This document shows, piece by piece, positions 393 to 19,365 of a stretch of DNA of 64,000 bases. A program made the translations under genes and the position numbers. The DNA lies in NCBI GenBank assembly GCA_964497125.1, contig CAZCDU010000007.1, positions 5,503 through 69,502 of the forward strand, read 5' to 3'. The notes under the pieces are model-generated. The model ran no database searches, was not told the origin of the DNA, and was given only the letters and a program-made list of their open reading frames with translations. Every line of letters starts with the position of its first letter. Position 1 is the stretch's first letter. This stretch comes from an uncultured Victivallales bacterium. GTDB taxonomy: Bacteria; Verrucomicrobiota; Kiritimatiellia; UBA8416.

Positions 393-566
393 GGCGCGCA
401 TACTAGCGAACAACAGAAGGCAGGGACAGCCTAACCGTTCAGCCCGTGCTTTTCTTGAGTAGTGGGTTGTCTTGGCACCATGACGTGGCTGTCTCGCTGA
501 ACATCCGCACTGGACAGCCCGTCGGCCGCAATGACACACTTGGCAGGGCAGGGAGATCAAAAACGT

Positions 567-1406: not shown

Positions 1407-1407
1407 G

Positions 1408-2304: not shown

Positions 2305-2321
2305 GGGATGCCACGTCACTG

Positions 2322-3182
2322 TTACCACAGCAGGTCAAGCAGTCGCTCCGCCGGGACGCAGCGCTTCCAGACCATTTGCAGGTTGCTGTCTACGCCATCC
2401 ACCTTCTTGTAGTAGATCGATGTGGTTGCGCGGGCAATACCGACTACAGCCCCGTTCGCATTCAGAACGGGCGCCCCGCTGGAGCCCTTCGCGAAGTCCG
2501 CCGTAATCGTGATGACGTCGTTCTTTGTCCCGCCGTGTTCGTGTGTATATCTGCCACTTACGATGCCTTCAGAGAAGGTATAGAGGTGTTTCTGTGGGTG
2601 GCTTATCACCCAGATGGGCGTTCCTATTTCGGCGCCGCCGGACACAGGCAGTGCTGATAGGTTTTCTGCCTCAACCTTCATAACAACAAGATCGTCGTTC
2701 TTGGAGGCCGCCAGCACCTCGGTCACCGGGAATACGCGGCCATCATGGGTACGGATGCCAAGTGTGGGCGCTTCCTTCTCGTTCTTCTCCTTCTCTTCGA
2801 TGACATGGTAGTTGGTGACGATAACACCATCTTTGTGGATCACGAAGCCGGTGGCCATCGACACATGCCAGCGGCTGCAGTTGTTGCATTTGTAGAGCTT
2901 GCCAACCGATACGACGCCTTCCCTCGCCTGTCGGTAGAGGTCGGTCGGGGCGAGCGCTTTCGTTCTCGCGGCAAGCGGTTCAATGGCATGTGAGTGCTTC
3001 TTTGCTGCCTGGCGCCGCAGTGTTTCGATAGCGGTCGTCTCATCGGCCTTGTGTAGAGCTTCCAGCTCCTTCGCAAATGACCGGCGTACGGCGGCATTGT
3101 CTATATAGGCGGTAGTGCCCGCTGCGGCACCGGCGACGAGGCAGGCCATGAGGATGAGTGTTCTGTATCGTGCTGTGTTCAT
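2322..3182 (-). CDS. trypsin-like (S1/S1C) secreted serine protease
   Basis: Signal peptide. TNYHVI (His), DLVVMKV (Asp) and GSSGAPVL (Ser) catalytic motifs. Confidence 0.7.
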   Translation of the reverse strand: MNTARYRTLILMACLVAGAAAGTTAYIDNAAVRRSFAKELEALHKADETTAIETLRRQAAKKHSHAIEPLAARTKALAPTDLYRQAREGVVSVGKLYKCNNCSRWHVSMATGFVIHKDGVIVTNYHVIEEKEKNEKEAPTLGIRTHDGRVFPVTEVLAASKNDDLVVMKVEAENLSALPVSGGAEIGTPIWVISHPQKHLYTFSEGIVSGRYTHEHGGTKNDVITITADFAKGSSGAPVLNANGAVVGIARATTSIYYKKVDGVDSNLQMVWKRCVPAERLLDLLW

Positions 3183-3192
3183 ATCGTAAGTG

Positions 3193-4362
3193 CTATTGCT
3201 TCTTGATTTCTTTGAGGATGGCGCTGCCTACGGGAGGGCAGCCGGCGACGAAGGTGCCACGTTCACGATGGCATGCGGTACAGTTGCCGATGCAGATGGT
3301 TCCCGGCGGCAGCTCGGTATGGCCCTTTCCGATGGCAATGTGGATGGCCTCACCCTCCGGGACGTATTCGAGAAGCTCATTGCCGGAGTTCTTCAGAAAG
3401 AGGAGCAGGGTGGACTGGCAGGCACTGCACGATTGTTCGTCATGGACGGTGACGTTCGGGAATTCGATGGCCATGTTCTTCGGCGCTGCCGCGAATGGGG
3501 ACGCGAAGGACTCCCAGTTGTCAGGCGCGATGCTGAGCTTTGCGAGATCGATAGTGCCATAGCCCCGTTCGGCCCCGATGCGCAGGTGTGCAATATTGCC
3601 GGCATCGCGTCCCATCAGGTGACAGGCGACGGCGTCAGCGGCAAAGGCATCGGCGCTCGCGATAACCACCCCAAGCGGCTTCGGTGCGCCGGCGCTGGGG
3701 CCAAGCCCTTCCATGCCAATGGTCCCGTCAATCAGCGAGAAATGGGGCCGTAGAACGGACGCCATGTCAGCAATGGCGATCTCCAGGGACCTGGCATCCT
3801 TGCGGTCCTGGGCCGGCAGCATATGCAGTTCAACTTTGCTACGTCGCCACAGGCAGCCCTTCATGTTCTTGACGGCGAGGGTCACACCCGTGTGCATGTG
3901 GGTCTTCATGACAGGAATGGACACCACGGCATCGAACTCGAGGGCCTCAGGGCAGACGCGGAGTTCGTCTATGGCTTCGCCCTCGGGAATCGGGACGGTG
4001 ACGGACGGGCGGGCATCCATATCGATCAGCGGGCAACTGCGGGCACGCGCCACTGCCGCAATCCCGGTGGTCTCGAATGCCTCCAGGGTCTTTACTCCGG
4101 TGATGGGGCTCTCCCCAACGGCGACATCGGCGCCAGCCTTCCGGAACATGTCGATGGCAGCCGCGACGACGTCGGGGTTGGTCGTGACACCACTACCGGG
4201 GGTCGCACATCGCCCCGCGTTCGGCTTAAGCAGAACACGTTTGCCGTCAAACATCTCGAGAGAGAATGCGCGGAGGGCTTCACACGCGGCGGCGTATCCA
4301 TCGGTATCGTGGGCAACGACCACTTGCGGGGCTGCGCTACTGTCTGGCTGGATCGATTCCAT
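3193..4362 (-). CDS. DUF362 family protein with C-terminal Cys-rich (Fe-S) tail
   Basis: Full-length similarity to the DUF362 fold (KPN...GESP...KTH core). C-terminal CxxC...C...CPP cluster. Sits between the kinase and protease genes on the same strand. Confidence 0.5.
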   Translation of the reverse strand: MESIQPDSSAAPQVVVAHDTDGYAAACEALRAFSLEMFDGKRVLLKPNAGRCATPGSGVTTNPDVVAAAIDMFRKAGADVAVGESPITGVKTLEAFETTGIAAVARARSCPLIDMDARPSVTVPIPEGEAIDELRVCPEALEFDAVVSIPVMKTHMHTGVTLAVKNMKGCLWRRSKVELHMLPAQDRKDARSLEIAIADMASVLRPHFSLIDGTIGMEGLGPSAGAPKPLGVVIASADAFAADAVACHLMGRDAGNIAHLRIGAERGYGTIDLAKLSIAPDNWESFASPFAAAPKNMAIEFPNVTVHDEQSCSACQSTLLLFLKNSGNELLEYVPEGEAIHIAIGKGHTELPPGTICIGNCTACHRERGTFVAGCPPVGSAILKEIKKQ

Positions 4363-4455
4363 GAGGGGAGAGTAGGGTGAGACGTCTGACGTGGGAAGTG
4401 GAAAGTGCGGAGAATGCGGCGTACACGGCGGGTCGCCCCGGTCATCGTACGGTGT

Positions 4456-6684
4456 CTAGCGGGCCACGAGGGAAAATGAACAGCTGAGTTTGACGCCCTT
4501 ACCGGCTTGGGATGTGGCCTCGAACTCTCCCCCGATGAGGTCAGTACGATGTCGCATCAGTCTTAGTCCCATGCCGCGTGGGGCTTGATGCGGGACGTTT
4601 GAGAAGCCTTTTCCATTGTCCTTTATGATCATAAGTCCCATGTCTTCTGACTGCCTCATGATGCTGATCTCGACGACAGTGGCTGAACCATGTCGGACGG
4701 CATTGTTAACCGACTCATGCACAATGTGGTAGATATGGACGCAGGTACTCTGAGGAATATCCTCTTCGGCAAGGTCGGTTTGGAAGTTGCATGTGATCGA
4801 ATAGAGTTCTTCAGCTTCGTCGGTGAAGCGCTGCACCCCATTGAGGCAGCCGCCATCTCTCTGCTCTGCCGGATTCAGCCCTCGAGAGAGAGATCGCGTT
4901 TCATCAATGGAGCTCTGCAAGACTTCAAGAATCGCATTCAGTTGATGCTCCAGTTGGGGGCACTTCTCCGTGAGCGGTTTCTGGAGTGCCTGTGCGGCAT
5001 AGTAGATTCCGACGAGCTTCTGTCCCAGCGAGTCGTGCAGGTCTCCGCCAATGCTGCGCGTGACATCCATGGTGGTGTCGAGAATCGCCTGTTGCACAGC
5101 AATGCTCTCGCTGCTGTCATGCACGTAGGCAATGACATGCGAACCCGCCCCGGGCTCAATTCGACGCAGGCTGACCCTGGCAGGGAATGCTCTGCCTTGC
5201 TTCCGCCGGGCCGTAATCCGTATGTCGTCAATGCCCGCACCCAACGTTTCTGCATCACCGTCCAGGTAGCTCACGATTGCCGGTAGGAACCCCGAGGCAG
5301 GCTCTCCAACAAGCCCCGCCTGCGACGTTCGGAACATCGTGACGGCAGCGGGATTACTGTCGATAATCGTGCCATCCCTGTTGATGACCAGAATGCCATC
5401 GGCCGCGACATCGAACAGGGCTCGGAACTGTTGCTCGCTTTCCTCGATGATATCAGAGGCCCGGGAGAGTTGGGCCAGTTGCTGACGCTGATCGCCGAGC
5501 ATCATGTCGACATCCATCTTGATCGTATCCAGGGCATCAAGAAGTACGCGCACCGGATGTCCGGGGGGGAAACGCTCCGCAATCGGGAATGCGCCGGGAA
5601 CGTCCCAGCGGGTATTGCTCAAAATCTGCACGAGTGTATTTGCGACATCTTCTTCGCTGCTGATCTCATTGGGGAGAGGCATACTGATGTCGAGGGGAAC
5701 CGCAGACCCCTCCCGGTGGCAGTTAATAATGGCGATGGCTTCGTCCAGCGATTTGGCTTCAATGACCTGGATAGGAATACGCATCTGCGTGAAACGCGCG
5801 GAGGCATTCGTGAATGCCTGGTCGCCAATGAGAATGATGAGCTTCGTGGTCAGTTCGCTCTGTCCCCTGGTGATCAGTTGGGCGTAGTGGGCGAGAGCTG
5901 AAATGGGGAACTCGTCCATATCCTCGATTCGAGCGACGACATAGTCGAATTGGGAAGGTCCCAACCTGGGCGTCAGATCATTGCGCCGTTGAGCCACGAC
6001 TTGGTCTATGCCCGTGCGCGTTGCCTTGCCGCAGTAGCAGATAAGCAGTACATCAGGTGCGATACTCCGGTAATCGACCTTCATGGCCTCTACCGCGTAG
6101 GATCCCAGCAGAGGATAGTCTTCCGGGTGTGAGGCGGTCTTCGGTTCCGGGTCAACCGATGGTGAGTCCGTTGGTTTTACGCGGCCGAGAGGGACGCCGA
6201 GAATCTTGGAAGCACAGATGATCGACTCCTCGTAAGTCCTGCGGAATTCAATGGGGTAGGGGACGATATGGAGGCGTCTTCCAATGCCAAGGTTGAAACG
6301 GAAGTATGTTGAGAGATTGTAGCAGACCAGGCCGGCGATCTCAGGACGCTTCTTGAGTCCGTCAATATAGACCTTGCGGGCTTTCTGGCTAATGCCGTTG
6401 TACAAGGCGAAGTCATCGATGAGGACAAAGTGTCGGTCCTTGCCCTGGTACCGGTCAAATATGCCATGCATGATCTTGACGTACTCGACCATGCCGGACT
6501 CGCTACCCCGGCCCCAGGGTAGTGAGAAGATGATGCGGTTATCCATGAGTCCCACGCCGACAGCGTAGGCCTGTTCGATGACGCGCCATTCAGACGGCGA
6601 GGTAACCTCGCACCCCGTAAACTGGCAGAAGCCGAGGTTTGCAGGATGCGGATAGGTCTTGGCTAATTTCTCGGGACATTCCAT
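4456..6684 (-). CDS. cytoplasmic sensor histidine kinase, HisKA_3/NarL-type, with unknown N-terminal domain + receiver-like domain + PAS
   Basis: H-box DLHDSLGQKL (HisKA_3). HATPase_c motifs (NNAVRHG, DNGKGF, GMGLRLM). PAS block (FRALFDVAADGILVINRDGTIIDSN). No TM segments. About 230 aa at the N-terminus match nothing I recognise. Confidence 0.7.
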   Translation of the reverse strand: MECPEKLAKTYPHPANLGFCQFTGCEVTSPSEWRVIEQAYAVGVGLMDNRIIFSLPWGRGSESGMVEYVKIMHGIFDRYQGKDRHFVLIDDFALYNGISQKARKVYIDGLKKRPEIAGLVCYNLSTYFRFNLGIGRRLHIVPYPIEFRRTYEESIICASKILGVPLGRVKPTDSPSVDPEPKTASHPEDYPLLGSYAVEAMKVDYRSIAPDVLLICYCGKATRTGIDQVVAQRRNDLTPRLGPSQFDYVVARIEDMDEFPISALAHYAQLITRGQSELTTKLIILIGDQAFTNASARFTQMRIPIQVIEAKSLDEAIAIINCHREGSAVPLDISMPLPNEISSEEDVANTLVQILSNTRWDVPGAFPIAERFPPGHPVRVLLDALDTIKMDVDMMLGDQRQQLAQLSRASDIIEESEQQFRALFDVAADGILVINRDGTIIDSNPAAVTMFRTSQAGLVGEPASGFLPAIVSYLDGDAETLGAGIDDIRITARRKQGRAFPARVSLRRIEPGAGSHVIAYVHDSSESIAVQQAILDTTMDVTRSIGGDLHDSLGQKLVGIYYAAQALQKPLTEKCPQLEHQLNAILEVLQSSIDETRSLSRGLNPAEQRDGGCLNGVQRFTDEAEELYSITCNFQTDLAEEDIPQSTCVHIYHIVHESVNNAVRHGSATVVEISIMRQSEDMGLMIIKDNGKGFSNVPHQAPRGMGLRLMRHRTDLIGGEFEATSQAGKGVKLSCSFSLVAR

Positions 6685-6820
6685 TTAAGCGCAGTCTAGC
6701 AGACTGGTCATGGGGTGTCATGCGACAAATGTAGAAAATGACAGGGAATTGCAGTCGTCCGCCAGACGGGATATACTTGCCCCGGATTTGGGTTTTCATC
6801 AGGTGCAACAGGAGTATGCC

Positions 6821-7975
6821 GTGAGTCGAGACAAGTCAGATAATTTTGATCCGTTCGTGGCCCGGGCGCAGCAGTCTGCAAAGGAGGGGCGCGCCGCTGC
6901 GCGCCGCAAGAATCTACGGCGGCTGCTGTACCTGGTGGTTTTCGCCGCATTGGTCGTCGTGCTGATGCATGCGCTTGGCGGGAGCGACCAGCCGGCGGCT
7001 TGGGCAGAGGTCGGACGTGAGCTCTCGTCAGTCAGGAAGGGTGAGGATGGCCTGGCTGCGACGGAGCGACTGTTGAACGCGGCGAGGCGGGTTGAGCCTA
7101 AGCGCGGAAACATGAGCGCACTGGAAGGTATGTATGCGGTCGCCAGCCTTGAGTACCTTCTCGATGACAAGCCCAGCAAGGCTGCAGCCGTGATCCAGCT
7201 CTTGCGCGCAGAGTTCCAGAGCGGGTGGCTGTTCGGTGAGCATTGGGATGAGCGGAATCTAACCGAGGGATGCGGTGACTGTTCGCTCTCGGATGGACGC
7301 CAGGTCCTGACCTGTGCCGCGTGTGGCGGCTCGGGTAAAGCGTCCGGCTTGACCAGTGGCATGAAGGGTCCGCACAATACAGCGCGGCAGCGAAAATGCG
7401 TGGCCTGTAATGGGCAGGGCAGAGTCTCCGATGCATCCCGGGCAGCTAGCTGCAGAACCTGTGGCGATCGCGGCCGAGTGCTCTCCAGAACTGAGCTCAC
7501 GGAGCATCGACGCAGAGCTTTGACGAAGGCACAAGTTGCGGCGGTACTGAAGCGCATCCAGTGTATGTTAAGCCTTCGGTTTCTGAAGCGCGAATCGGCG
7601 CCCAAAACGAGAGTTCGGCCGGCTGAGCCCGGAACGCCAGGCTGGGCCTTTACGACGGAAATACGGCGGCGTATTTCTGTGTCCACTCTTCCGCAGCCTC
7701 TTCGTGGGTCAAGGTACGCCCTTTCTCTCGCTCCTGCTCGGTATAGGCTTCGATGTAGCAGATCTGTTCCACGAGGCGCGCGCGAAAGTGGTCCTGCTCA
7801 TCAAGGAATCGGATGCCTTCGATATAGCGCTTGGTTTCGGATTGAGGGTCGACGTGGCTCCAGACCACTTCCCCTTGAAGATGGGGTTGGGTTCTCAGTG
7901 ACGGAAAAGACAGTTCGAGTACATCGCCCGGGGCGTGGCGTTCCGGGGATACAAAGGCAAGGCCACCGAAGCTGA
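6821..7975 (+). CDS. membrane protein with DnaJ-type CxxCxGxG zinc-ribbon repeats (3' end uncertain, probably near 7650)
   Basis: GTG start after a CAGGAG RBS. One TM helix (LLYLVVFAALVVVLMHAL). Four CxxC pairs (CGDC...CAACGGSG...CVACNGQG...CRTCGDRG). Codon third-position GC drops sharply after about 7650, where the ORF runs antisense through the PilZ gene. Confidence 0.45.
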   Translation: MSRDKSDNFDPFVARAQQSAKEGRAAARRKNLRRLLYLVVFAALVVVLMHALGGSDQPAAWAEVGRELSSVRKGEDGLAATERLLNAARRVEPKRGNMSALEGMYAVASLEYLLDDKPSKAAAVIQLLRAEFQSGWLFGEHWDERNLTEGCGDCSLSDGRQVLTCAACGGSGKASGLTSGMKGPHNTARQRKCVACNGQGRVSDASRAASCRTCGDRGRVLSRTELTEHRRRALTKAQVAAVLKRIQCMLSLRFLKRESAPKTRVRPAEPGTPGWAFTTEIRRRISVSTLPQPLRGSRYALSLAPARYRLRCSRSVPRGARESGPAHQGIGCLRYSAWFRIEGRRGSRPLPLEDGVGFSVTEKTVRVHRPGRGVPGIQRQGHRS

Positions 7976-8096
7976 CGTTGGTCAATTCCTGCGGGGGATC
8001 GTCTCGATGCCCTGCCCGGCTACACGACAGAGGAATCTTCGATGCGTGGCGGATGAACCTCCGGGCCTGTACGAACTGTGTTTCTTGTGCTGTCAT
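7650..8096 (-). CDS. PilZ domain protein (c-di-GMP binding)
   Basis: RRFIRH and NVSFGGLAF motifs (RxxxR / DxSxxG). It is the last gene of the small-protein-nadE operon. Confidence 0.7.
   Translation of the reverse strand: MTAQETQFVQARRFIRHASKIPLSCSRAGHRDDPPQELTNVSFGGLAFVSPERHAPGDVLELSFPSLRTQPHLQGEVVWSHVDPQSETKRYIEGIRFLDEQDHFRARLVEQICYIEAYTEQEREKGRTLTHEEAAEEWTQKYAAVFPS
7658..7677. other. perfect 8-bp stem / 4-nt loop hairpin (GAAATACG-GCGG-CGTATTTC) inside the 3' end of the PilZ CDS
   Basis: Read directly from the sequence. It encodes TEIRRRISV in both strands' overlapping ORFs. Confidence 0.6.
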
Positions 8097-8100
8097 TGTC

Positions 8101-10008
8101 TCACTCCGGTAGACCGTGCAAAAGAAGTTCCTGTTTCAGAACGTCATAAGCCTCGGTGTAATGTGCCCCCATTTGGGCTTCACGGTGATCAAACCCAAAG
8201 GCGCGCCGCTTGACGGCGAGCACCGGGGGCGCCTGGATGCGTTTTGCAAGCCCCATCCCCTGGTAGAGATTCCACCATCGCTCCAAGTCGGTGATGAAGG
8301 CCTGCGGTGTTGGGAACAGTTCTGAGATGGTGCCGTCGAACTCGAGCTTGGTCTCCAGGTTCTTGTTGGCATACCAGACCAGTATCTCTTCGGGGGTCGC
8401 TCGATCCCACCATTCCACCCAGCTATGGAAGAGCGCATCGTGATAGGGGTAGATGAGGGGATCGCCTTTGCCCTCGTCAACGTTCTGTGCATCGCTGAGT
8501 TCAGCGGAAGGCACGATGTCGATCGAGCCTCGAGGAATGAGCTCGCGGCCGAATACGGCCTCGTTGAGGTAATCCGCAAGCGCGTAAACTTGTGTTTTCC
8601 ATAGATCGGCAATGCATGCGAGATACCCCCCCAAATCTCCGTAGAGCGTGGTATACCCAACCGTGAGTTCCGATTTGTTGGCATTGCAGGTGAACACGCC
8701 CCCGAAGGCGGAGGCCAGCGCTGCGAGTATGCGCGAAGATCGGTCGCGTGCCTGGACGTTCTCCCGCATGAATCCCGACAGGGAAAGCTCTTGCCGGCGT
8801 CGTCCATCGGTGCTCTGGATTGCAAGTCCGTCGATCTGGTCCAGTGTCACAGCGACGCTATCCTCAATGGAAACATCAGCGTAGAAACACCCGGCATTCT
8901 GTGCCAGCTCACGAGCCAGGTTCTTGGTTGTGTCCGAGTTGTAGCGACTGGGCATATTCACCAGGAGCAGGTTGTCGGGAGGGAGAATTTCGGCGTGGAT
9001 GGCGGCCACAACGGCGGAGTCGATGCCGCCGGAGACGCCGATGACGGCACGTTCGACACCGCACAGCTCCATGAACCTGCGGGTGCCATAGGTAATCGCC
9101 GTGTGGGTGTCGGCAATGGTGTCGTGCTGTGGGCTGCTGTGATCGGCAAACGTGGCGTCCTGCCCCAGGGGGAGGTCGATCGTCAGGGTTGTTGCCTCAA
9201 ACGGCCCCCCACACCGGATGTGGTTGCCATGGGCATCATAGACGCTGGATGCCCCATCGAACGTAAATACGGTCTTGCCATTGTTCTGGATGCCAACCTT
9301 GTTGACATAGAGCAGGGGGCGGCCGAGATGACGGGCATGCGCTGCGAACACGCGGTTCCGTTTGTGGTTCTTGTCGAGCGTAAAGGGCGACGCACTGGCA
9401 TTGATGAAGAGATCAATCTCCTTGCGTGCCCCCAGGATGGCCAGGGGAGAGACCGCATAGTCAATATCCCAGGCGTCTTCGCATAGGATGCAGCCAAGGA
9501 CGGCGCGCCGTGTCTTGAAGGGCGTCAGGAGCGCTTCGATGCTGCCGTGTTCTTCGAAAGCCAGCTTGCGAAGGTCAAAGAAGTGCCGGCTGTCATCGAA
9601 TTGCCGGTAGTTCGGCATGAGGGCCTTGATGCTAAACGGATAGGGGCTGTTCTCGGGGCTGACGAATTCGCCATCCTCGGCCACGAAAAGGGCATTGTAT
9701 TTCCTGACGCGCCCATCCTCGTTCCGCCGTTGCCAGTCGATGGCAACGTTCCCGAAGACGACGGCAATGCCCTGGCTGGCTTCACGGATCTGGTGACCGC
9801 AGGCCTCACACTGGCGCAGGAATGCCTGGTGTTCCCATTCATCTCCCAGAAGATACCCGGGAATCGCCATCTCGGGGAAGACGAGTAACTCGACGCCATC
9901 CTGAATAGCCGTTTGGATGTGTTGCAGGATGGTTCTGGTGTTGACGCGTGGACGTCCAGGCTGGACGTCGATCTGGGCAAGTCTACACGTGAGCGTTCCG
10001 GAGGACAT
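8101..10008 (-). CDS. nadE: glutamine-dependent NAD+ synthetase (nitrilase domain + NAD synthase domain)
   Basis: N-terminal CN-hydrolase triad (FPEMAIPGY ... K ... LGCILCEDAW). C-terminal PP-loop SGGIDS. 635 aa, typical of the long NadE form. Confidence 0.9.
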   Translation of the reverse strand: MSSGTLTCRLAQIDVQPGRPRVNTRTILQHIQTAIQDGVELLVFPEMAIPGYLLGDEWEHQAFLRQCEACGHQIREASQGIAVVFGNVAIDWQRRNEDGRVRKYNALFVAEDGEFVSPENSPYPFSIKALMPNYRQFDDSRHFFDLRKLAFEEHGSIEALLTPFKTRRAVLGCILCEDAWDIDYAVSPLAILGARKEIDLFINASASPFTLDKNHKRNRVFAAHARHLGRPLLYVNKVGIQNNGKTVFTFDGASSVYDAHGNHIRCGGPFEATTLTIDLPLGQDATFADHSSPQHDTIADTHTAITYGTRRFMELCGVERAVIGVSGGIDSAVVAAIHAEILPPDNLLLVNMPSRYNSDTTKNLARELAQNAGCFYADVSIEDSVAVTLDQIDGLAIQSTDGRRRQELSLSGFMRENVQARDRSSRILAALASAFGGVFTCNANKSELTVGYTTLYGDLGGYLACIADLWKTQVYALADYLNEAVFGRELIPRGSIDIVPSAELSDAQNVDEGKGDPLIYPYHDALFHSWVEWWDRATPEEILVWYANKNLETKLEFDGTISELFPTPQAFITDLERWWNLYQGMGLAKRIQAPPVLAVKRRAFGFDHREAQMGAHYTEAYDVLKQELLLHGLPE

Positions 10009-10010
10009 GA

Positions 10011-10202
10011 CTACTGCTCCGTCGTGCCTTTGGCTTCAGTCTCGTTGTCTTCTACGGATAGTGCCGTTTCGAATGCCTCTTGGCGCTTGGCCCCCCATAG
10101 TTCCTCTTCGATCCGGCGCAGTCTTCGAAAGAACCAATACAAGACTCCGGATGTTGTGGCGACAACCACAAGTGCAAGCGCAAGCATCATGATATTCTTC
10201 AT
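10011..10202 (-). CDS. small single-TM membrane protein (63 aa), first gene of the nadE operon
   Basis: MKNIMMLALALVVVATTSGVLYWFF then a charged tail. 3-nt gap to nadE. The upstream part of the 190-aa ORF is Pro/Arg-rich and overlaps the repeat region, so it is treated as non-coding. Confidence 0.4.
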   Translation of the reverse strand: MKNIMMLALALVVVATTSGVLYWFFRRLRRIEEELWGAKRQEAFETALSVEDNETEAKGTTEQ

Positions 10203-10251
10203 AGAGCTATGATAGGTAGGTGGGTTGGGTGTGTCGAGTGATAGTTGCTCC

Positions 10252-10332
10252 GGCATTTGATGCCCCTCTTGGCTGGAGCCTGCTTGCCGGGGACGGCTGC
10301 GCAGGCTAGGCCTGCGAGGGGCATCAAATGCC
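10252..10332. repeat. perfect 17-bp inverted repeat (GGCATTTGATGCCCCTC / GAGGGGCATCAAATGCC) with 47-nt spacer; each arm also contains the GGCAT-TTG-ATGCC mini-hairpin
   Basis: Arms at 10252-10268 and 10316-10332, read directly. Confidence 0.8.
10262..10292. repeat. 31-bp direct repeat unit Y copy 1 (GCCCCTCTTGGCTGGAGCCTGCTTGCCGGGG)
   Basis: Identical second copy at 10366-10396. Confidence 0.8.
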
Positions 10333-10348
10333 TTCGCTGGTGGTTGGG
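10311..10348. repeat. 38-bp direct repeat unit Z copy 1 (CCTGCGAGGGGCATCAAATGCCTTCGCTGGTGGTTGGG), followed by a G-tract-rich segment
   Basis: Second copy at 10610-10647 with 2-3 mismatches. Each copy is followed by G-runs (GGGGGAGAAGGGGAGG / GGGGTGAGGGGAGG). Confidence 0.75.
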
Positions 10349-10365
10349 GGAGAAGGGGAGGTCGT

Positions 10366-10396
10366 GCCCCTCTTGGCTGGAGCCTGCTTGCCGGGG
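10366..10396. repeat. 31-bp direct repeat unit Y copy 2
   Basis: Identical to 10262-10292. Confidence 0.8.
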
Positions 10397-10609
10397 GGGG
10401 CGAGAGTGCTCGGACTATGCGGGTGTGAAACTTGGAGACAGGAGAAGGTGGACGCCGGCGTCCCGACGGCGTTGCGCAAGACACGAGCCTCCTGTGAGGA
10501 AGAAGAGGACGATGTTCTCCACTGTCACACGACAGGCGCTCTATTTTCTCGACCGCGTCCGGAGGCCACGGTCCACCTTTCACACGGATAACAATGATTG
10601 AAGACCCGG

Positions 10610-10647
10610 CCTGCGAGGGGCATCAAATGCCTCCGCTGGTGGTGGGG
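10610..10647. repeat. 38-bp direct repeat unit Z copy 2
   Basis: See copy 1. 299 bp separate the two copies. Confidence 0.75.
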
Positions 10648-10687
10648 TGAGGGGAGGATGTGCGGTGGTTGGGGTGAGCGTGGGCTA

Positions 10688-11680
10688 CTACTTCTTCCTG
10701 GCGGTTGCGAGCCAGTGGGGCATGGGGGGGGGGAGCGGTGAGCACTGGAAATCGGTGAACCCGGCCTCACCGAGCCATCCTTCCAGCTCACGATCTGAGA
10801 AGACCCAGCCATTCTGGGCCGTGAGGGCCATGTTGACGGCGAAGAGGGCGGAGAATGCGGGTTGTGTGTGTGTGGCATCGGTCATCATGTCGAGAATGAA
10901 CACTTTGCCGCCCGGGACGAGAGCATCGTAGGCCTTGCTGAATAGGTTCGCGATACTCTCAGGAGATTCCTGGTGTAGCATGCCAAAGAAGGCAATGGCG
11001 TCTTGTCCTTGGGGAAACGGTGTGGTGCGGTAGTCACCGGGCAAGGTCTTGACGCGGTCCTGCATGCCCTGCTGTGCAATGAGCTCATCTGCTACCGCCA
11101 CGACGGCGGGTAGGTCAAGCACTGTGCATTCCAATTCCGAATTGGCCTGGGCCATGAGCACCGAGTAGGTGCCCGGCCCGCCGCCGACATCCAGCAGGGC
11201 TCGGCAGTCACTTAGGTCGAGCTGGGGGACCACGGAACGACCAATTCCCATCGCACGCCCATGCATCGACAGCACGAAGGTACGGGTGCGGTCAGCATCA
11301 TCACCAAGGTGGATTTCGGGGCGCTCAACAGGGCTGCCGGTCTGTGCGAGCTGCGTGAGTTTGCCCCAGGCGGGATAGACGTCACGATTGTAGCGGATCG
11401 CGCCACCAAGATAGGCGGGTGAGCTGGGAACAAGAAATGTTGCCGAATCGGGCGTGTTGGCATAGGTGTCGTCTGACTTCGTGAGCAGTTCCAGCGCTAC
11501 ACAGGCATCCAGAAGCAGCCTGGCACCGCGTGGATCAAGGCTGAGGTCCGCAGCAATGGCCTCCGCGGTCGCCCCGGGTGTGCGGTTCAAGCAGTCGAAA
11601 ATGCCGAGGTCGGAGGAGGCAAAAAGGACGCAGGAGTCATAGAAGGCAGAGGCCATATCAACGATGCGCGTAGAATTCAT
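10688..11680 (-). CDS. class I SAM-dependent O-methyltransferase (CrtF/COMT-like, with dimerisation domain)
   Basis: LDVGGGPG SAM motif. About 330 aa, typical of the O-MT family 2 architecture. Transcribed divergently from the ebo-like operon. Confidence 0.7.
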   Translation of the reverse strand: MNSTRIVDMASAFYDSCVLFASSDLGIFDCLNRTPGATAEAIAADLSLDPRGARLLLDACVALELLTKSDDTYANTPDSATFLVPSSPAYLGGAIRYNRDVYPAWGKLTQLAQTGSPVERPEIHLGDDADRTRTFVLSMHGRAMGIGRSVVPQLDLSDCRALLDVGGGPGTYSVLMAQANSELECTVLDLPAVVAVADELIAQQGMQDRVKTLPGDYRTTPFPQGQDAIAFFGMLHQESPESIANLFSKAYDALVPGGKVFILDMMTDATHTQPAFSALFAVNMALTAQNGWVFSDRELEGWLGEAGFTDFQCSPLPPPMPHWLATARKK

Positions 11681-11787
11681 GTCGGCTTTTCCTTTCGGGA
11701 GACGCGGCTGTGTTGCTAAGGTTTACGGTCTGAAGTACGTATATACCACACGAAGAGTGGAATTCAACGCATTGAACGAGAGAGTGA

Positions 11788-12630
11788 ATGACGATGACGA
11801 TTATTGAACCCCATATACATATGTATTCCCGGACGACGAACGACTATGAAGCGATGTATGCCGCAGGCATCCGGGCCTGCCTGGAACCGTCCTTCTGGAT
11901 GGGAGCAGACCGGCGTTACGCCGGGACATTCTTCGACTACTTCCAGCTCATCCTGGAGTTTGAGACCGTACGGGCCCGCCGCTTTGGAATCGACCATTTT
12001 GCCGCGGTCTCGCTGAATCCGAAGGAGGCAGAAGATACGGCCTTGGCGGACGAAGTCATTGATGGCCTGGGGGAGTACCTTGATCATCCGCGTTGCGTGG
12101 TGCTCGGGGAGATCGGTTTCAACAACCAGACCCCTAACGAGGAGCGGGCGTTCGTCCGTCAGCTTGAGATTGCCGCCGAACGCGATATGCCCGTGATTGT
12201 GCACCTTCCGCATGTCGACAAGCTGCGTGGCACGAAGCGTACGATCGAGATTATCCAGGAAATGGAGTTGAACCCGGACCACATTATCATTGATCACAAC
12301 ACGGAAGAGACCATCGCGCTGAGCCGTGAGTCCGGTTGCTGGTCGGGGATGACCGTGTATCCCATATCCAAGCTAACTCCCCAGCGCGTGTCTGGCATCA
12401 TCCGTGAGCATGGCAGCGATCGCATGATCGTGAATGGCTCAGCTGATTGGGGCGTTTCGGACCCATTGAGTCTCGTCAAAGTAGCCGACCACATGGCCGC
12501 CGACGGGCATTCAGAGGAGACCGTGCGCAAGTTGGTGTTCAGCAATGCCATGGCGTTCTATGGGCAGTCCGAAAAGTGGCAGCCCGAACTGGATCTGGTA
12601 CCCGTTGATCCTCGTGAGTTCCAGCGATGA
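11788..12630 (+). CDS. eboB: TatD-family metal-dependent hydrolase (EboB-like)
   Basis: N-terminal EPHIHM (HxH) motif and TIM-barrel hydrolase layout. First gene of the cluster. 4-bp overlap with the next gene. Confidence 0.6.
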   Translation: MTMTIIEPHIHMYSRTTNDYEAMYAAGIRACLEPSFWMGADRRYAGTFFDYFQLILEFETVRARRFGIDHFAAVSLNPKEAEDTALADEVIDGLGEYLDHPRCVVLGEIGFNNQTPNEERAFVRQLEIAAERDMPVIVHLPHVDKLRGTKRTIEIIQEMELNPDHIIIDHNTEETIALSRESGCWSGMTVYPISKLTPQRVSGIIREHGSDRMIVNGSADWGVSDPLSLVKVADHMAADGHSEETVRKLVFSNAMAFYGQSEKWQPELDLVPVDPREFQR

Positions 12631-13337
12631 GGGTGAAAGCCTGGTTGGAGCTGGTACGCGTTCCTAATCTACCCACGGTCCCCGGTGATCCGTTGGCTGG
12701 CTTTGCCCTGGCGAGTCTTGGCGCGGGCCGGGTTGATTGGGTGAGGGCATTGCCCGCCGTTGGGGCTTCGTTGCTGCTCTACATGGCCGGTATGATCTGG
12801 AACGACTGTGCTGACCTGGCGGAGGACCGGCGGGACAGACCACAGCGCCCGCTTGCCAGTGGCCGCATCCGTAGGCGCGATGCCATGGTTGTTGCGGGGT
12901 TAATGGCTGTTGCCGGTGTCGCGCTGGCCGGGCTTTCGGGGTGGGGCTCCATGGCCATGGCACTACTTCTCCTGTTGCTGGTCCTGGCCTATGATTTCGT
13001 TTCCCGGCGTATTCGTTTGCTCGGGTTTATCAATATGGGTGCCTGTCGGGGCGTTAGCCTGTTGCTCGGTGCTTCTGCGCTTGGGGTGCCTTCCCTGTAC
13101 CCGATCAGTGCAGCGGTGGGGGTATCCCTCTATATCGCGTGTGTCACGAGGCTTGCCTGCGATGAGGTCAATGGCCAGAGTCATGGGGTGAGTATTGGCC
13201 TCCTGATCCGCCTGCTTTTGGTCATCCAGGCGTGTCTGTGTGTTTCTGCAGGCTGGAGCGGGGTTGCTGTTGGGGCCGCGATCCTTCTAGGATGGCCGGT
13301 GTCGGCCTTGTTGAACAAACGGTTTTACGCGAGCTAA
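12627..13337 (+). CDS. eboC: UbiA-family aromatic/polyprenyl prenyltransferase (EboC-like)
   Basis: Multi-TM protein. Asp-rich motif NDCADLAEDRRD. Confidence 0.6.
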   Translation: MRVKAWLELVRVPNLPTVPGDPLAGFALASLGAGRVDWVRALPAVGASLLLYMAGMIWNDCADLAEDRRDRPQRPLASGRIRRRDAMVVAGLMAVAGVALAGLSGWGSMAMALLLLLLVLAYDFVSRRIRLLGFINMGACRGVSLLLGASALGVPSLYPISAAVGVSLYIACVTRLACDEVNGQSHGVSIGLLIRLLLVIQACLCVSAGWSGVAVGAAILLGWPVSALLNKRFYAS

Positions 13338-13386
13338 GCGATGGCATGACGCCGCAGTCGTTGCGTTGCTGACCGTGAGATGTGTG

Positions 13387-14682
13387 ATGACGAAAAAGAA
13401 ATTACTGGTCGTTCAAGTGGCGGGGCTGGGGTACGAGTTCCTCGCCTCTCACCATGGGGTCAAATGGGACGGTCTCACGTTTCATCCGTCCCAGGGAGTC
13501 TTTCCTGCCCTGACGTGCACTGCCCAGGCAACGTTCCGGACTGCCCGGGCTCCCGGCACGCATGGCATAGTCGCGAATGGGCTATGGGACCGGCGATATG
13601 CGAAAGCACGTTTCTGGGAGCAGTCGTCTCTGTTGGTCGACGGGGACCGTATATGGCAGGACTATCGTGAGGCCGGCAACAAGGTGGGCATGCTGTTCTG
13701 GCAGCAGAGCCTCGGCGAGGCCGTCGATACGGTTCTCTCGCCGGCCCCGATTCACAAACACCATGGGGGCATGATCCAGGATTGCTACGGCCTACCGGCC
13801 GGGCTCTATGACAAACTTCGGCGCCAGGTTGGACGTGGCTTTAACCTAATGCATTACTGGGGACCATTGGCATCGCATCGATCGTCTGCATGGATTACGG
13901 ATGCTACACTGGCCGTCATGTCGGACCCCCAGTTGGCACCGGACCTCTGTCTTACGTATCTGCCGATACTCGACTATGACCTGCAGCGGTTTGGCACGAA
14001 ACACCCCCGCAGCCGGCGGGCACTGGCACAGTTGCTTGGGCAGTTACGTACGTTGCGGGTGGGTGCCGTGACGCACGGATACGACGTGTTGATTTTCGGC
14101 GACTATGCGCTGGGTGATGTGACGGCGGCTCCCGTGGCTCCGAACCTGGTGCTGCGCAAGCAAGGCCTCCTTGGTGTTCGACAGGTTGGGCGCATGACAT
14201 ATCCTGATTTCCATAGCAGCACCGCATTCGCCATGGTCGACCACGAGATCGCGCATGTCTTTGTCCCCAATGCTTCCAACATTGACCGAGTACGCGCCGC
14301 CCTTGACGGGACGCCAGGCATTGCCGAAATCCTGGATCGCGAGCAGCAGACGGCGCGGGACGTCGGACATGCGAACGCTGGCGATTTGATGCTGGTGGCG
14401 GAAGAAGGATCCTGGATGACCTACCCGTGGTGGGAGAACCGCCGGGAGGCCCCCGACTATGCAGGACATGTCGACATTCACAGTAAGCCTGGGTACGATC
14501 CGTGTGAGTTGTTCTGGGGGTGGCCACCTGGTACAGTTAGCAAGAACTGTGAGCGAATACGTGGTACTCACGGCCGCATCGGGAACGGCCGGGAGATTGC
14601 GTGGGCTTCGAGTTGTATTGAGCAGGGTCCCACCTCTCTGGTAGAACTCTCGCTGGCTGTACAGCAATGGCTTGCCGGCTAA
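13387..14682 (+). CDS. eboF: alkaline-phosphatase superfamily, type I phosphodiesterase/nucleotide pyrophosphatase (EboF-like)
   Basis: N-terminal KKKLLVVQVAGLG...TCTAQATFRT metal-site Thr motif typical of NPP/AlkP enzymes. Start could be 13366. Confidence 0.55.
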   Translation: MTKKKLLVVQVAGLGYEFLASHHGVKWDGLTFHPSQGVFPALTCTAQATFRTARAPGTHGIVANGLWDRRYAKARFWEQSSLLVDGDRIWQDYREAGNKVGMLFWQQSLGEAVDTVLSPAPIHKHHGGMIQDCYGLPAGLYDKLRRQVGRGFNLMHYWGPLASHRSSAWITDATLAVMSDPQLAPDLCLTYLPILDYDLQRFGTKHPRSRRALAQLLGQLRTLRVGAVTHGYDVLIFGDYALGDVTAAPVAPNLVLRKQGLLGVRQVGRMTYPDFHSSTAFAMVDHEIAHVFVPNASNIDRVRAALDGTPGIAEILDREQQTARDVGHANAGDLMLVAEEGSWMTYPWWENRREAPDYAGHVDIHSKPGYDPCELFWGWPPGTVSKNCERIRGTHGRIGNGREIAWASSCIEQGPTSLVELSLAVQQWLAG

Positions 14683-14709
14683 TATGAAATCCAAGACCGA
14701 CAGATAGGT

Positions 14710-15966
14710 ATGAAACACTTTAAAGACAACAAGGACGTGGAGACGATTCAACAGACGTTCCAGGTCACGTTTGATTACTCGGTCAGCTTCACGTATGGCC
14801 TATTTGATGTCGGGAACCCGTTGCTTGCCGATACCATTGGCGATTGTCGCGGGGAAAGGGCCCACCGAATCCTCGTCTACGTAGACGATGGGGTCGCCGA
14901 GGCTCGCCCGGAGCTTCTTCAGCGTGTTCGCAATTACATTAAGCAGCACGGCGGTCAGCTTGAGCTTGTTGCGGACCCCATATTGGTTCCCGGCGGGGAA
15001 CGAGCCAAGAACGGCTGGAACATTGTGCGCAATATCATGTCGGATATCGGCAACGCGCATCTCGACCGGCATAGCTTCATCATGGCAATAGGCGGCGGCA
15101 GTGTGTTGGATAGCGTGGGCTTCGCGGCTTCCATCGTGCATCGTGGGATCCGGCTGATTCGGGTGCCAACCACGGTGCTGGCACAGAACGATGCCGGTGT
15201 TGGTGTGAAGACCGGCATGGATGAGCACGGGGCAAAGAACTTCGTTGGTACGTTTGCTCCACCGTATGCTGTGCTCGTTGATTTTGCTTTTCTCCCAACG
15301 CTCAAAGACAAGTATTGGTTCGGAGGCATTTCCGAGGCGTTTAAGGTTGCGCTGATCAAGGATGCTGCCTTCTTTACGTTTTTGGAGGAAAGCGCGGGAG
15401 CCCTGCGCGCACGCGATGCCGATGCGATTGAAACCGTCATAAAGCATACGGCTCGTCTGCACCTGGACCACATCCGTACCAGCGGCGATCCTTTCGAAAG
15501 CGGGACCGCACGTCCTCTCGATTTCGGGCACTGGGCCGCACACAAGCTCGAAGTCCTGTCCAACTACAGGCTGGGGCACGGTGAAGCCGTTGCGATCGGG
15601 ATTGCCCTGGATAGTCGCTATGCTGCATTGAGCGGACTTCTCACGGATGCCGAGGCCACTCGGATTGTGGATACGTTGCGTGCCGTTGGCTTGCCCGTAT
15701 GGGATACGCTACTTGAGTCTGTCACCGGTAGCGGTGAATTTGAGATTCTCAAGGGCCTCGAGGAGTTTCGCGAGCACTTGGGCGGGACACTGACGATAAC
15801 GCTGCCGCAGGGGATCGGGAACAAACTGGAAGTTCACACGATGGATACAGCGTTGATTTTGCAGGCAGCCGCACAGTTGAAGGATGCGTGCAGTCGTTCC
15901 TCTTCTCCTGTTGAGCACGGGACGGATGCATCCCGGTTGGCCGCGCTGGGTGGGAGCTCTGGCTGA
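14710..15966 (+). CDS. eboD: 3-dehydroquinate-synthase-like sugar phosphate cyclase (EboD-like; EEVS/DDGS-type)
   Basis: GGGSVLD...VPTT(V)LAQNDAGVGVKTG...HG...H motifs of the DHQS superfamily. I cannot discriminate DHQS from EEVS or DDGS from sequence alone. Confidence 0.65.
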   Translation: MKHFKDNKDVETIQQTFQVTFDYSVSFTYGLFDVGNPLLADTIGDCRGERAHRILVYVDDGVAEARPELLQRVRNYIKQHGGQLELVADPILVPGGERAKNGWNIVRNIMSDIGNAHLDRHSFIMAIGGGSVLDSVGFAASIVHRGIRLIRVPTTVLAQNDAGVGVKTGMDEHGAKNFVGTFAPPYAVLVDFAFLPTLKDKYWFGGISEAFKVALIKDAAFFTFLEESAGALRARDADAIETVIKHTARLHLDHIRTSGDPFESGTARPLDFGHWAAHKLEVLSNYRLGHGEAVAIGIALDSRYAALSGLLTDAEATRIVDTLRAVGLPVWDTLLESVTGSGEFEILKGLEEFREHLGGTLTITLPQGIGNKLEVHTMDTALILQAAAQLKDACSRSSSPVEHGTDASRLAALGGSSG

Positions 15967-17129
15967 TGATTGTGGGGCGGAACGCGTCGCAACACCTGAC
16001 TTACTGTCTCAATGTGCACCCGGGCGAGGACTGGGATGCCAACCTGGCTGCCATCCAGACGCACGCATTGGCTATTCGGGAGCGTGTTGCCCCGAAGCAG
16101 CCTTTTGGGTTGGGACTGCGCCTGAGCAATACAGCCGTCAATTCCCTGGCTGAGCCCAACACGCTGAGCGCGTTTCGGGAATTCCTCGACTCACACAGTC
16201 TCTACGCCTTCACGATCAACGGGTTTCCCTATGGCGCCTTTCACGGTACGAGGGTCAAAGAACGCGTCTATGCGCCGGATTGGCGGTCACCCGATCGCCT
16301 GGCCTATACCACACGGTTGGCGGACGTGCTGTCGGCACTTCTGCCGGAAGGTGTGCCGGGCAGCATCAGCACCGTGCCGGCCTCTTACCGGTCATGGATT
16401 CAGACCGACGAGGATCGTGACGCTATTGCCCGGAACCTGGCCCAGTGCGCATCGCACCTGGCGCAGATTGAGTCCCGAACAGGGCAGCACATTGCCCTGG
16501 CCCTGGAGCCGGAACCGGACTGTCTGTTTGATACGACGCAGCAGACTGTTGCCTTCTTTGAAGAGGTGCTGGCGGAGCACGCAGCGATAGGGAAACTCAA
16601 TGTCGACTGGCGGCGATACATTGGCGTCTGTTTCGACACGTGCCACCTTTCGGTGGTATTCGATGATCCCACCGAGGGATTGCTTGAGCTGAAGCGGCAC
16701 GGGATCTCTGTGCCGAAAGTCCAGATCAGTACAGCCCTTCGCGCGACAGGCGGGGGGGACACCGCGGCACGTTTGGAGGCGTTCGCGGACAACACCTACC
16801 TGCACCAGGTGCGGCTTCGTGGGGCCGATGGCACGCTGCGTTGTTTTCCAGACCTGACTGCGGAAACGCTCGCCGCCGTGGCGGCAGAGGAGCGGGGCGA
16901 GGTGCGCGTACATGTGCATGTTCCGCTGTACTTTGAAGAGTCCGGCTCCCTGCAGTCTACCGGCACAGACCTTTCCCCGCGCTTCTTTGAGGTCCTTGGC
17001 TCGTCCGGTATCCCTCATCTTGAGATCGAGACCTATACGTTCAGCGTTTTGCCCCCGGCGTTGTCTGCGTTACCGATTGAAGAGAGCGTCGAAAAAGAAT
17101 ATCAGTGGGTCCACGAGCGTATACGTTGA
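15966..17129 (+). CDS. eboE: xylose-isomerase-like TIM-barrel protein (EboE-like sugar phosphate isomerase/epimerase)
   Basis: TIM-barrel AP-endonuclease-2/xylose-isomerase-like pattern. Start overlaps the eboD stop (TGATG). Confidence 0.5.
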   Translation: MIVGRNASQHLTYCLNVHPGEDWDANLAAIQTHALAIRERVAPKQPFGLGLRLSNTAVNSLAEPNTLSAFREFLDSHSLYAFTINGFPYGAFHGTRVKERVYAPDWRSPDRLAYTTRLADVLSALLPEGVPGSISTVPASYRSWIQTDEDRDAIARNLAQCASHLAQIESRTGQHIALALEPEPDCLFDTTQQTVAFFEEVLAEHAAIGKLNVDWRRYIGVCFDTCHLSVVFDDPTEGLLELKRHGISVPKVQISTALRATGGGDTAARLEAFADNTYLHQVRLRGADGTLRCFPDLTAETLAAVAAEERGEVRVHVHVPLYFEESGSLQSTGTDLSPRFFEVLGSSGIPHLEIETYTFSVLPPALSALPIEESVEKEYQWVHERIR

Positions 17130-17186
17130 TTTTTGGCTGCGGAGGCATTAGAGTGCGACGCAGAAACAGCAATGGAGGAGATGAAA

Positions 17187-18409
17187 TGTTCAAAGTTCGG
17201 GTTGCAGTAGTTCTGGGGTTGGTCGCTCTGAGTGGTTGTGTGAGTCTGCCAAGAGGTGGGAGCAGAATAACGTTTCAGGATGATGTCGAGTTCTTAAGAA
17301 AGCACATTGATGTCGTCGTGCTTTCGGATAAGACCGCACGCAGCCAGGTGGCCGTTGCCCCGTCGTTGCAGGGGCGGGTGATGACAAGTACGGCGAACGG
17401 CGGATCCGGGGATAGCTACGGCTGGATCAACCGCGAACTGATCGCATCCGGCGAGACGGTAGAGCATATCAATGTCTATGGTGGGGAAGACCGGTTCTGG
17501 ATTGGCCCTGAGGGTGGGCAATTCTCAATCTTCTTTGCCAAGGGGGTTCCCTTCGACCTGGAGCACTGGTTCACACCGGCGCCGATTGACACGGAACCGT
17601 TTGGATTGGTGTCGCAGGATGGTCGCAAGCTCACGCTCTGCAAGAACATGGAGTTGAAGAACTACTCGGGAACGGAATTCTCGCTTCGCGTTGATCGGGA
17701 AGTACGCGTGCTGGAGCAGTCTGAGATTGCCAAAGCGTTGGGGATTGAGCCGACCCCGGAAGTCCGAAGCGTCGGTTTCGAGTCACGCAACTCCATGATG
17801 AACAGCGGTACCGTCCCCTGGAGTCGGGAGACAGGACTGCTTTCGATTTGGATCCTGGGAATGTTCAACCCGTCGCCTTCCACGACCGTTGTTGTGCCGT
17901 TCGTGACCGGGGATGAGAAGCTCCTTGGGCCCATCGTGAACGACGCCTATTTCGGTAAGGTCCCTGCAGAACGGCTCGTCGTTGGTGACGGAGTGATGTA
18001 CTTCAGCGGGGATGGTCAGTATCGGAGCAAGATCGGCCTTCTACCGCAGCGCGCAAAGCCGGTGGTTGGCAGCTATGACGCCCAGCAGAAGGTCTTGACG
18101 CTGGTGCAGTACAACAAGCCAAACGGGACACGGGACTACGTGAACTCAATGTGGGAATTGCAGGAAGAGCCTTATCGTGGTGACGTTGTGAATTCCTACA
18201 ATGATGGTCCTCCGGACCCCGAGTCGGAACCTCTCGGGCCGTTCTATGAATTGGAGACGTCATCGCCGGCCGCCAAACTCGGTGTCGGTGGGAGCATGAC
18301 GCATATTCATCGCACGATCCACCTGACGGGCCCCGAGGCCGCTCTGGATCCCATTGCGCGCAAGTTGCTCGGCGTGGGTATTGATGACATCAAAACCGCG
18401 CTTCGTTAG
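17187..18409 (+). CDS. lipoprotein of unknown function (lipobox ALSGC)
   Basis: GGAGGAG RBS. Signal peptide with lipobox. 407 aa with no recognisable catalytic motif. Immediately downstream of eboE on the same strand. Confidence 0.55.
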
Positions 18410-18478
18410 GGGGCTGCTCTGGGTGCCTCGGGGAATAGCTCAGCCGCCACACATCTGAGAAGCGGCATTGTCGCTCTC

Positions 18479-19351: not shown

Positions 19352-19365
19352 AGGCTGAAGCAGGT

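Follow-up and report, generated by a model that had tools for sequence, protein, structure and literature searches.

A strain-variable cluster of hairpin-forming palindromic repeats between an O-methyltransferase gene and the nadE operon of an uncultured Victivallales bacterium

The stretch analyzed here (the window) comprises 64,000 nt of contig CAZCDU010000007.1 from an uncultured Victivallales bacterium. Between an O-methyltransferase gene and the nadE operon lies a 485-bp gap (10203-10687) that holds a set of inverted and direct repeats, referred to below as the island. The island is a new sequence of a known kind, a palindromic repeat cluster or minisatellite. Most probably, it is a hairpin-forming cluster of palindromic repeats similar to BOX elements or to doublets of repetitive extragenic palindromic (REP) sequences that form hairpins (REPINs). 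It is found only in this species among the lineages examined. It would represent selfish or neutral DNA in a permissive spacer, with at most incidental terminator activity.

The repeats are organized around a 17-mer, GAGGGGCATCAAATGCC, which occurs at 10252-10268 on the minus strand and at 10316-10332 and 10615-10631 on the plus strand. With up to three mismatches allowed, only 0.29 matches were expected, and none of 100 shuffled sequences reached three. Each 17-mer holds the palindrome GGCAT-TTG-ATGCC, which gives three identical 13-bp copies in the island. An earlier reading of this DNA (the original prediction) had reported the copies at 10252 and 10316 as a perfect 17-bp inverted repeat. 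This repeat is present, its arms extend to 32 nt, and the copy at 10615 is a third one. The 31-bp direct repeats of that prediction were also recovered and match exactly for 32 nt (10261-10292 and 10365-10396); when 37 nt are compared, identity is 95%, and the copies are spaced 104 nt apart. A second pair, described as two 38-bp direct repeats, does exist, but its core has two mismatches. It extends to 54 nt with 87% identity (10309-10362 and 10608-10661) and a spacing of 299 nt. The palindrome GGACGCCGGCGTCC was found at 10450-10463 and the proposed pair AGGTGGAC / GTCCACCT at 10446 and 10572. All of these repeats were found within 1-2 nt of the positions first given, and no island unit occurs a further time in the window. 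The parts of the island are:

10632..10687, minus strand: C-rich, G-poor tract directly 3' of the O-methyltransferase stop codon, defined by base counts and fold
10608..10661, minus strand: module Z', the distal copy, 54 nt, 87% identical to Z, with the 17-mer X1d at 10615-10631
10402..10607, minus strand: unique segment U, 206 nt, between Z' and the first Y, holding the GGACGCCGGCGTCC palindrome
10293..10396, minus strand: full 104-nt tandem unit, made up of Y, a C-rich tract, X1 and a GCAGGC-CTA-GCCTGC mini-hairpin
10309..10362, minus strand: module Z, the proximal copy, with the 17-mer X1p at 10316-10332
10252..10292, minus strand: terminal partial unit Y+, which matches the start of the unit for 32 nt and continues with TCAAATGCC, completing the inverted 17-mer X2 (10252-10268)
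10252..10332, minus strand: 81-nt hairpin of REPIN-like architecture, with a perfect 17-bp outer stem (X1p/X2) and a 7-bp inner stem

In minus-strand order, the O-methyltransferase stop is followed by the C-rich tract, by a first block of Z' (with X1), U (206 nt) and Y, and by a second block of Z (with X1), 11 nt and Y+ (with the inverted X2). Another 14 nt separate the end of Y+ from the -35 box of the promoter that serves a small open reading frame (ORF) and nadE. A long and a short element lie side by side in the island, each bounded by inverted repeats. The perfect 17-bp repeats bound units of 380 nt and 81 nt and flank segments of 346 bp and 47 bp, respectively. Since Z and Z' are only 87% identical, their duplication is the older one, whereas the 104-nt units, which are 100% identical, are recent and dynamic. 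The mixed orientations, the spacings of 64, 104 and 299 nt, and the fact that the "spacers" are themselves repeated agree with the earlier statement that this is not an array of clustered regularly interspaced short palindromic repeats.

The inverted 17-mers, each of the form GGCAT-N3-ATGCC, form the 81-nt hairpin that is expected of a REP doublet. As minus-strand RNA, this hairpin has a predicted energy of -63.4 kcal/mol (z = -8.0) and makes up 78% of the ensemble, and no other close inverted repeat in the window is as strong. The minus-strand RNA folds better than shuffled sequences (z = -4.5). Segment U was considered as a structured RNA and rejected, since it folds no better than shuffles (z = -1.0) in spite of the palindrome and the pairing sequences that it hosts. 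U has no blastn or tblastx similarity to the spacers of relatives, and its ORF has no Pfam match. An 11-nt match to a lacO-like half-site (ATTGTTATCCG, about 10586-10596, minus strand) was dismissed as a post hoc chance match. The G runs near the direct repeats had been credited with G-quadruplex potential. A regular-expression scan of both strands of 10203-10687 found no canonical motif, whether written as (G3+ N1-7)x4 or (G3+ N1-12)x4, and what had been taken as G runs is better described as sequence rich in C and poor in G when the transcribed (minus) strand is considered.

The number of 104-nt units differs between assemblies of the same species. Same-species contigs were collected by exact look-up in JGI, ENA and Logan assemblies, with 24 found for NadE and 17 for the O-methyltransferase. 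The spacer measures 485 bp in L001, L100 and L102 and 589 bp in L002, L003 and L101, a difference of exactly one 104-nt unit (alignment A1). Tandem Repeats Finder reported a period of 104, 2.3 copies and 100% matches for L002. By this count, the window has 1.3 copies, other assemblies have 2.3, and L004, which starts inside a further copy, has at least 3.3. Counting full units only, there is one in the window, two in L002, L003 and L101, and at least three in L004. Differing copy numbers occur in contigs with identical NadE and O-methyltransferase proteins. Head-to-tail units and a copy-number polymorphism between strains, here taken from short-read assemblies, are what defines a minisatellite or variable number tandem repeat (VNTR).

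The simplest mechanism for this variation would be that the Y modules, 37-nt direct repeats at a distance of 104 nt, undergo unequal recombination or slip during replication. Either process would add or remove exact 104-nt units, and the locus would act as a minisatellite. The repeat DNA would be tolerated in the permissive spacer between the O-methyltransferase gene and the nadE promoter.

At least 12 of the 18 contigs shown stop within the island, coming from both sides, and an exact tandem repeat exceeding the assembler k-mer is sufficient to cause these breaks. Within the island, six sites vary in 450 bp, compared with four in about 6 kb of flanks, although this comparison is biased because the flanks were preselected for identical proteins. 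There are no synonymous differences in nadE among 13 contigs. Two singleton single-nucleotide polymorphisms (SNPs), at 10330 and 10332, break the outer stem of the hairpin, and an SNP at 10301 that is common to several contigs changes a G-C pair to G-U.

Relatives were identified through NadE homologs with 89, 87, 81, 80, 77 and 70% identity, which were traced to their contigs and represent six lineages. The island sequence is absent in all six, and blastn and tblastx align only the 3' end of the O-methyltransferase gene and the small ORF. The order UbiA-TatD-O-methyltransferase-small ORF-nadE recurs in two lineages with 80% NadE identity and is therefore ancestral. One of the two has a spacer of 309 bp between the O-methyltransferase gene and the small ORF, and the second has one of 880 bp. 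The 81% lineage has no O-methyltransferase gene, and its spacer is 154 bp. The lack of conservation, the variable length and the stem-breaking SNPs weigh against a selected role for the island.

According to the original prediction, units that were unique in the genome and not conserved would point to a chance low-complexity spacer. As far as could be tested, the units are indeed unique and not conserved, but the conclusion attached to this is wrong, since the repeats are far beyond chance and polymorphic.

Other palindromes were seen at this locus in two relatives. The 880-bp spacer belongs to L110 (NadE 80%) and contains a 130-aa PEP-utilizers_C gene fragment together with its own, different palindromes, among them two copies of another REP-like palindrome (ACGGGCTTC...GGAGCCCGTGCTG) at L110:3008-3034 and 3120-3153. 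In L096 (NadE 87%), a different hairpin lies at 110-190, GTGGCAAATGGCAAG ... CTTGCCATTTGCCAC, with a perfect 15-bp stem and flanking GTGGCGAGTG direct repeats. There, about 240 bp separate the small ORF from nadE and contain this hairpin, whereas the two genes are only 2-12 nt apart in all other lineages. The spacer between the O-methyltransferase gene and the small ORF seems to collect different palindromic elements in different lineages. In a separate observation, GCA_046766155.1 (L097 and L108) has two loci with the small ORF and nadE (NadE 81% and 77%) on separate contigs, each followed by an FGE-sulfatase gene, which suggests a mixed bin or a recent duplication.

A possible but clearly less probable explanation is that the island is one locus of a dispersed, nonautonomous mobile family, of REPIN type or of the type of miniature inverted-repeat transposable elements (MITEs), that is moved in trans by a transposase encoded elsewhere. 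The tandem cluster would then be a secondary expansion. A modular REP/MITE-like family had been proposed before, and the anatomy fits it, with inverted palindromic 17-mers, common modules and tandem amplification. The perfect 17-bp repeat, with arms that are themselves palindromic, bounds both the 81-nt and the 380-nt unit in the manner of terminal inverted repeats. Long and short forms with common ends occur together, as in MITE deletion derivatives, and the whole matches the description of a REPIN cluster. Contigs of the L103 type, which join the repeat to unrelated sequence, would be expected if another copy or insertion exists. The other palindromic elements in the same operon region of relatives (L110 3008-3153 and L096 about 118-188) also favor this explanation.

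The many dispersed copies that such a family predicts were, however, not found. No other copy of the island is present in the window or in 10 kb beyond it (about 76 kb of the genome), and the GGCAT-N3-ATGCC palindrome occurs nowhere else in the 64 kb. In well-studied genomes, such as those of Pseudomonas and E. coli, REP and REPIN families have a copy about every 5-10 kb. A high-density family with one copy per 5-10 kb is excluded, while a low-copy family is still compatible with these results. Gene calls covering 10 kb to each side of the island include no REP-associated tyrosine transposase (RAYT), other transposase or recombinase. On reading the sequence, no more than 3 nt were common to the two flanks of either unit, so that a convincing target-site duplication is missing. 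No empty site could be aligned in the relatives examined, whose spacers are unrelated.

Public collections were also searched. Exact scans with the 17-mer gave 27 matches in species-representative genomes (596 Gb), 57 in JGI metagenomes and 6 in IMG/VR, all of them single. The 84 genome and metagenome matches have random flanks, with at most 24 of 60 flank positions identical, and were regarded as chance matches. Since these collections did not return the known island contigs, the organism seems to be absent from them, and the negative results say nothing about copy number within the genome. A blastn search against plasmids and phages gave no match. The translated tandem unit (200 aa, all frames), meant to reveal spurious ORFs at further copies, found nothing at E<=10 among 5.8 billion proteins. 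This null is weak, since even the 87-aa ORF called in the island itself was missed.

The genes around the island, all on the minus strand, are as follows, with their order and Pfam assignments agreeing with the gene context first reported:

10688-11680, minus strand: O-methyltransferase gene (Pfam Methyltransf_2 and Dimerisation)
10209..10237, minus strand: sigma-70-like promoter of the small ORF-nadE-pilZ operon, TCGACA-17-TATCAT, 10 of 12 matches
10011-10202, minus strand: conserved small membrane-type ORF, 63 aa, with its stop 2 nt before the nadE ATG, outside the island
8101-10008, minus strand: nadE, glutamine-dependent NAD synthetase (Pfam)
7650-8096, minus strand: PilZ protein gene (Pfam)

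In the direction of transcription, the island follows the O-methyltransferase gene and precedes the small ORF. Among named relatives, the best for NadE are metagenome-assembled genomes of Verrucomicrobia, Kiritimatiellia and Lentisphaerae, which makes the host an uncultured member of the Planctomycetes-Verrucomicrobia-Chlamydiae (PVC) superphylum. Near the 3' end of the O-methyltransferase gene, a C10 homopolymer on the coding strand (10725-10734) is C9 in one assembly (L003:9172-9180, alignment A4). The resulting frameshift lengthens the O-methyltransferase from 330 to 384 aa, so that its ORF reaches the repeat island. Either slippage-type variation or an error of assembly or sequencing may be responsible. 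About 7 kb past the right end of the window, L122 has a 155-bp tandem duplication (about 18036-18190) within a HisKA/HATPase histidine-kinase gene. The duplication splits the gene, with 551 aa in L120 compared with 354 aa in L122.

An alignment of 118 nt around the start of the small ORF in six lineages (A3) shows no conservation upstream and then a block of CTnGACA, 17 nt, TAnnnT, 6 nt and ATG, with conservation beginning exactly at the -35 box. Five of the six aligned lineages have this promoter, and the 6 nt between the -10 box and the ATG are fixed in all six. In the host, this site is the best promoter-like sequence in positions 1-20000 of the window. A seventh lineage, L124, which was read separately, keeps the -10 box and its spacing to the ATG and has no recognizable -35 box. 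The start of the small ORF has no Shine-Dalgarno sequence, and its ATG is 6 nt past the -10 box, from which we infer a leaderless transcript starting at or next to the ATG at 10202. The small ORF is directly upstream of nadE in five of the six lineages, with a partial copy in L096. It encodes 60-68 aa with a hydrophobic N-terminus across lineages (L095:140-373, L097:3764-3998, L108, L110:3760-3998 and L112) and belongs to no Pfam family. An exhaustive search of 1.84 billion representative proteins returned 42 relatives at E<=1e-3, so the small ORF is a real gene.

These data bear on the proposal, offered as an alternative in the original prediction, that the small ORF-nadE-pilZ operon is controlled in cis by an RNA from the island, be it a leader, an attenuator or a riboswitch. 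The proposal draws on the fold of the minus strand against shuffles given above and on the alternative pairings X1d/X2 and X1p/X2 that would be possible. However, the island stops 14 bp upstream of the -35 box, and the promoter forms its downstream boundary. Since the promoter lies downstream, with the ATG 6 nt past the -10 box in six lineages, the island is 3'-flanking or spacer DNA and not a nadE leader. In addition, the island is missing from every examined relative that keeps the operon, and its copy number differs between strains. A check against Rfam, including the NAD+ riboswitch classes (the class I nadA motif and the class II pnuC motif), gave nothing at the gathering threshold. At E<=10, positions 10000-10800 gave only miRNA-precursor noise on the hairpin. 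A leader RNA has been largely refuted by this evidence and has almost no probability left.

The location of the island 3' of the O-methyltransferase gene raises the question of transcription termination. In the 56 nt after the stop codon, the transcript strand has 32 C and 6 G. The fold of 10600-10690 on the minus strand is unexceptional (z = 0.09), the C-rich tract is predicted to be unpaired, and the GC-skew window 10641-10720 is among the four most skewed in the 64 kb. The tract resembles a Rho-utilization (rut) site. If it acts as one, the rut-like tract followed by a very stable hairpin would stop transcription of the O-methyltransferase gene before the nadE promoter, and incidental termination of this kind is plausible from base composition and predicted folds.

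A stronger version of this idea is that the island is a selected terminator or insulator. The rut-like tract would load Rho, and the hairpins would pause RNA polymerase or protect the 3' end of the O-methyltransferase mRNA, thereby shielding the nadE promoter from read-through. The location suits this role, directly after the O-methyltransferase stop and with 14 bp left to the next -35 box, as does the succession of an unstructured tract with 32 C and 6 G and then hairpins. The 20 kb around the island show no enrichment of canonical terminators with a hairpin and a U tract (17 against 16.7 expected), and the relative L110 has other hairpins at the same position. But a terminator would not require 485 bp, perfect tandem copies or a strain-variable length, and the sequence is unconserved even at 89% NadE identity. 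Moreover, the SNPs at 10330 and 10332 break the outer stem in single contigs, and there is no U tract. We consider a selected terminator doubtful, and somewhat less probable than the mobile family.

Another possibility is that the island works at the level of DNA, either as a set of GGCAT-N3-ATGCC operators for a dimeric transcription factor or with the 17-bp inverted repeats as the ends of an invertible switch. Three identical 13-bp palindromes are present, the proximal one has its center at -56 relative to the inferred start, as is typical of class-I activator sites, and perfect 17-bp inverted repeats flank the 47-bp and 346-bp segments. The absence of the palindrome elsewhere in the 64 kb gives no sign of a regulon, though, and it is not conserved in the relatives. 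All 18 of the shown contigs that reach the island have it in one orientation, with no inverted form, and there is no recombinase gene within 10 kb on either side. A regulatory array is very improbable on these grounds, and the invertible promoter switch (inverton) is not supported, given the single orientation in 18 of 18 contigs and the lack of a recombinase in the gene lists. An integron attC site, a dif site, a retron and a tRNA-derived element were rejected, as RYYYAAC/GTTRRRY cores are missing from the hairpin ends, neither a reverse transcriptase gene nor a recombinase gene lies nearby, and nothing matched a tRNA or an Rfam family.

We therefore favor the palindromic repeat cluster, rank the dispersed mobile family second and the selected terminator, which overlaps with the first, third, and place the regulatory readings far behind. 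Several points weigh against the favored interpretation. The hairpin has no U tract, which does not favor even incidental terminator activity. Within about 76 kb, no second genomic copy was found, nor any associated transposase among the called genes within 10 kb, so that the analogy with REPINs and BOX elements is architectural only. The copy numbers come from short-read metagenome assemblies, which are prone to collapsing or miscounting exact 104-nt copies, and the polymorphism could in part be an assembly artifact. Finally, L103 and six similar contigs depart from the repeat after CCCCGGCAAG and finish with an unrelated tail of 103 nt, an arrangement that a purely local duplication model fails to explain.

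This alternative junction (L103:4399-4501, contig Ga0117909_1000421 and the six similar ones) leaves the Y module after ...GCCGTCCCCGGCAAG. Its tail carries two ATTTGAGTC-type direct repeats and has no match in any sequence fetched. An insertion, another locus of the repeat or a mis-join might account for the junction. Identity of the tail with the hairpin element of L096 was rejected: GGCAAGTG...TGAATAGT occurs in both, but the score of 23 falls within those of shuffled sequences (mean 16.7, maximum 27). Together with the differing palindromes in sister lineages, the L103-type junction hints at active turnover of such elements. A far-reaching version, which we regard as unlikely, is that an undescribed REPIN/MITE-like mobile family exists in uncultured PVC bacteria related to Kiritimatiellia and Verrucomicrobia, and that the number of 104-nt copies upstream of the leaderless promoter tunes or phase-varies expression of the small ORF, nadE and pilZ.

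The main value of these results is a correction, since the region is not a riboswitch or attenuator of NAD biosynthesis and should not be annotated as such. The island is also a hotspot at which metagenome assemblies of this organism break, and it could provide a VNTR strain marker. It provides an example of a REPIN/BOX-like architecture outside the Proteobacteria and Firmicutes, where such elements were studied. The conserved small ORF coupled to nadE and the conserved promoter ahead of it, which seems to give a leaderless mRNA, may be the more interesting biology at this locus in the PVC clade.

Among known systems, REPIN clusters, described in Pseudomonas fluorescens SBW25, are REP doublets that form hairpins and are mobilized by RAYT transposases (PMC3116915). 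The island resembles them in that two short inverted palindromes form a long hairpin of about 80-110 nt and in its extragenic position. In contrast, REPINs number tens to hundreds per genome and are linked to RAYTs, while the island is one locus in about 76 kb with no RAYT seen. It has no sequence similarity to known REPs, and it comes from a bacterium of the PVC superphylum.

BOX elements of Streptococcus pneumoniae have the form boxA-(boxB)n-boxC, with n varying between strains (PMC3049150). Like them, the island is an intergenic, modular composite. The modules at its ends form a stem-loop by pairing, and an internal one occurs in tandem, in a number that depends on the strain. BOX elements can affect the expression of neighboring genes, and by analogy the island may as well. 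They differ in having more than 100 dispersed copies and a 45-nt boxB, whereas the island is a single locus of unrelated sequence with a 104-nt unit that holds half of the hairpin.

Rho-dependent terminators, and REP elements that stabilize or terminate mRNA 3' ends, are known in E. coli. The island likewise has a C-rich, G-poor tract past a stop codon, predicted to be unstructured, and then stable stem-loops that lack a U tract. It is far longer and more repetitive than termination needs.

For the tandem unit, a parallel may be drawn with the VNTRs built on mycobacterial interspersed repetitive units (MIRUs). Their units are tens to about 100 bp long and lie between co-directional genes, as does the unit of the island. 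As minisatellites of Mycobacterium tuberculosis (PMC3635867), MIRUs form a multi-locus family (about 40 loci) and, unlike the island, are not built round a long hairpin. What the two have in common is intergenic tandem repeats whose copy number differs between otherwise near-identical strains.

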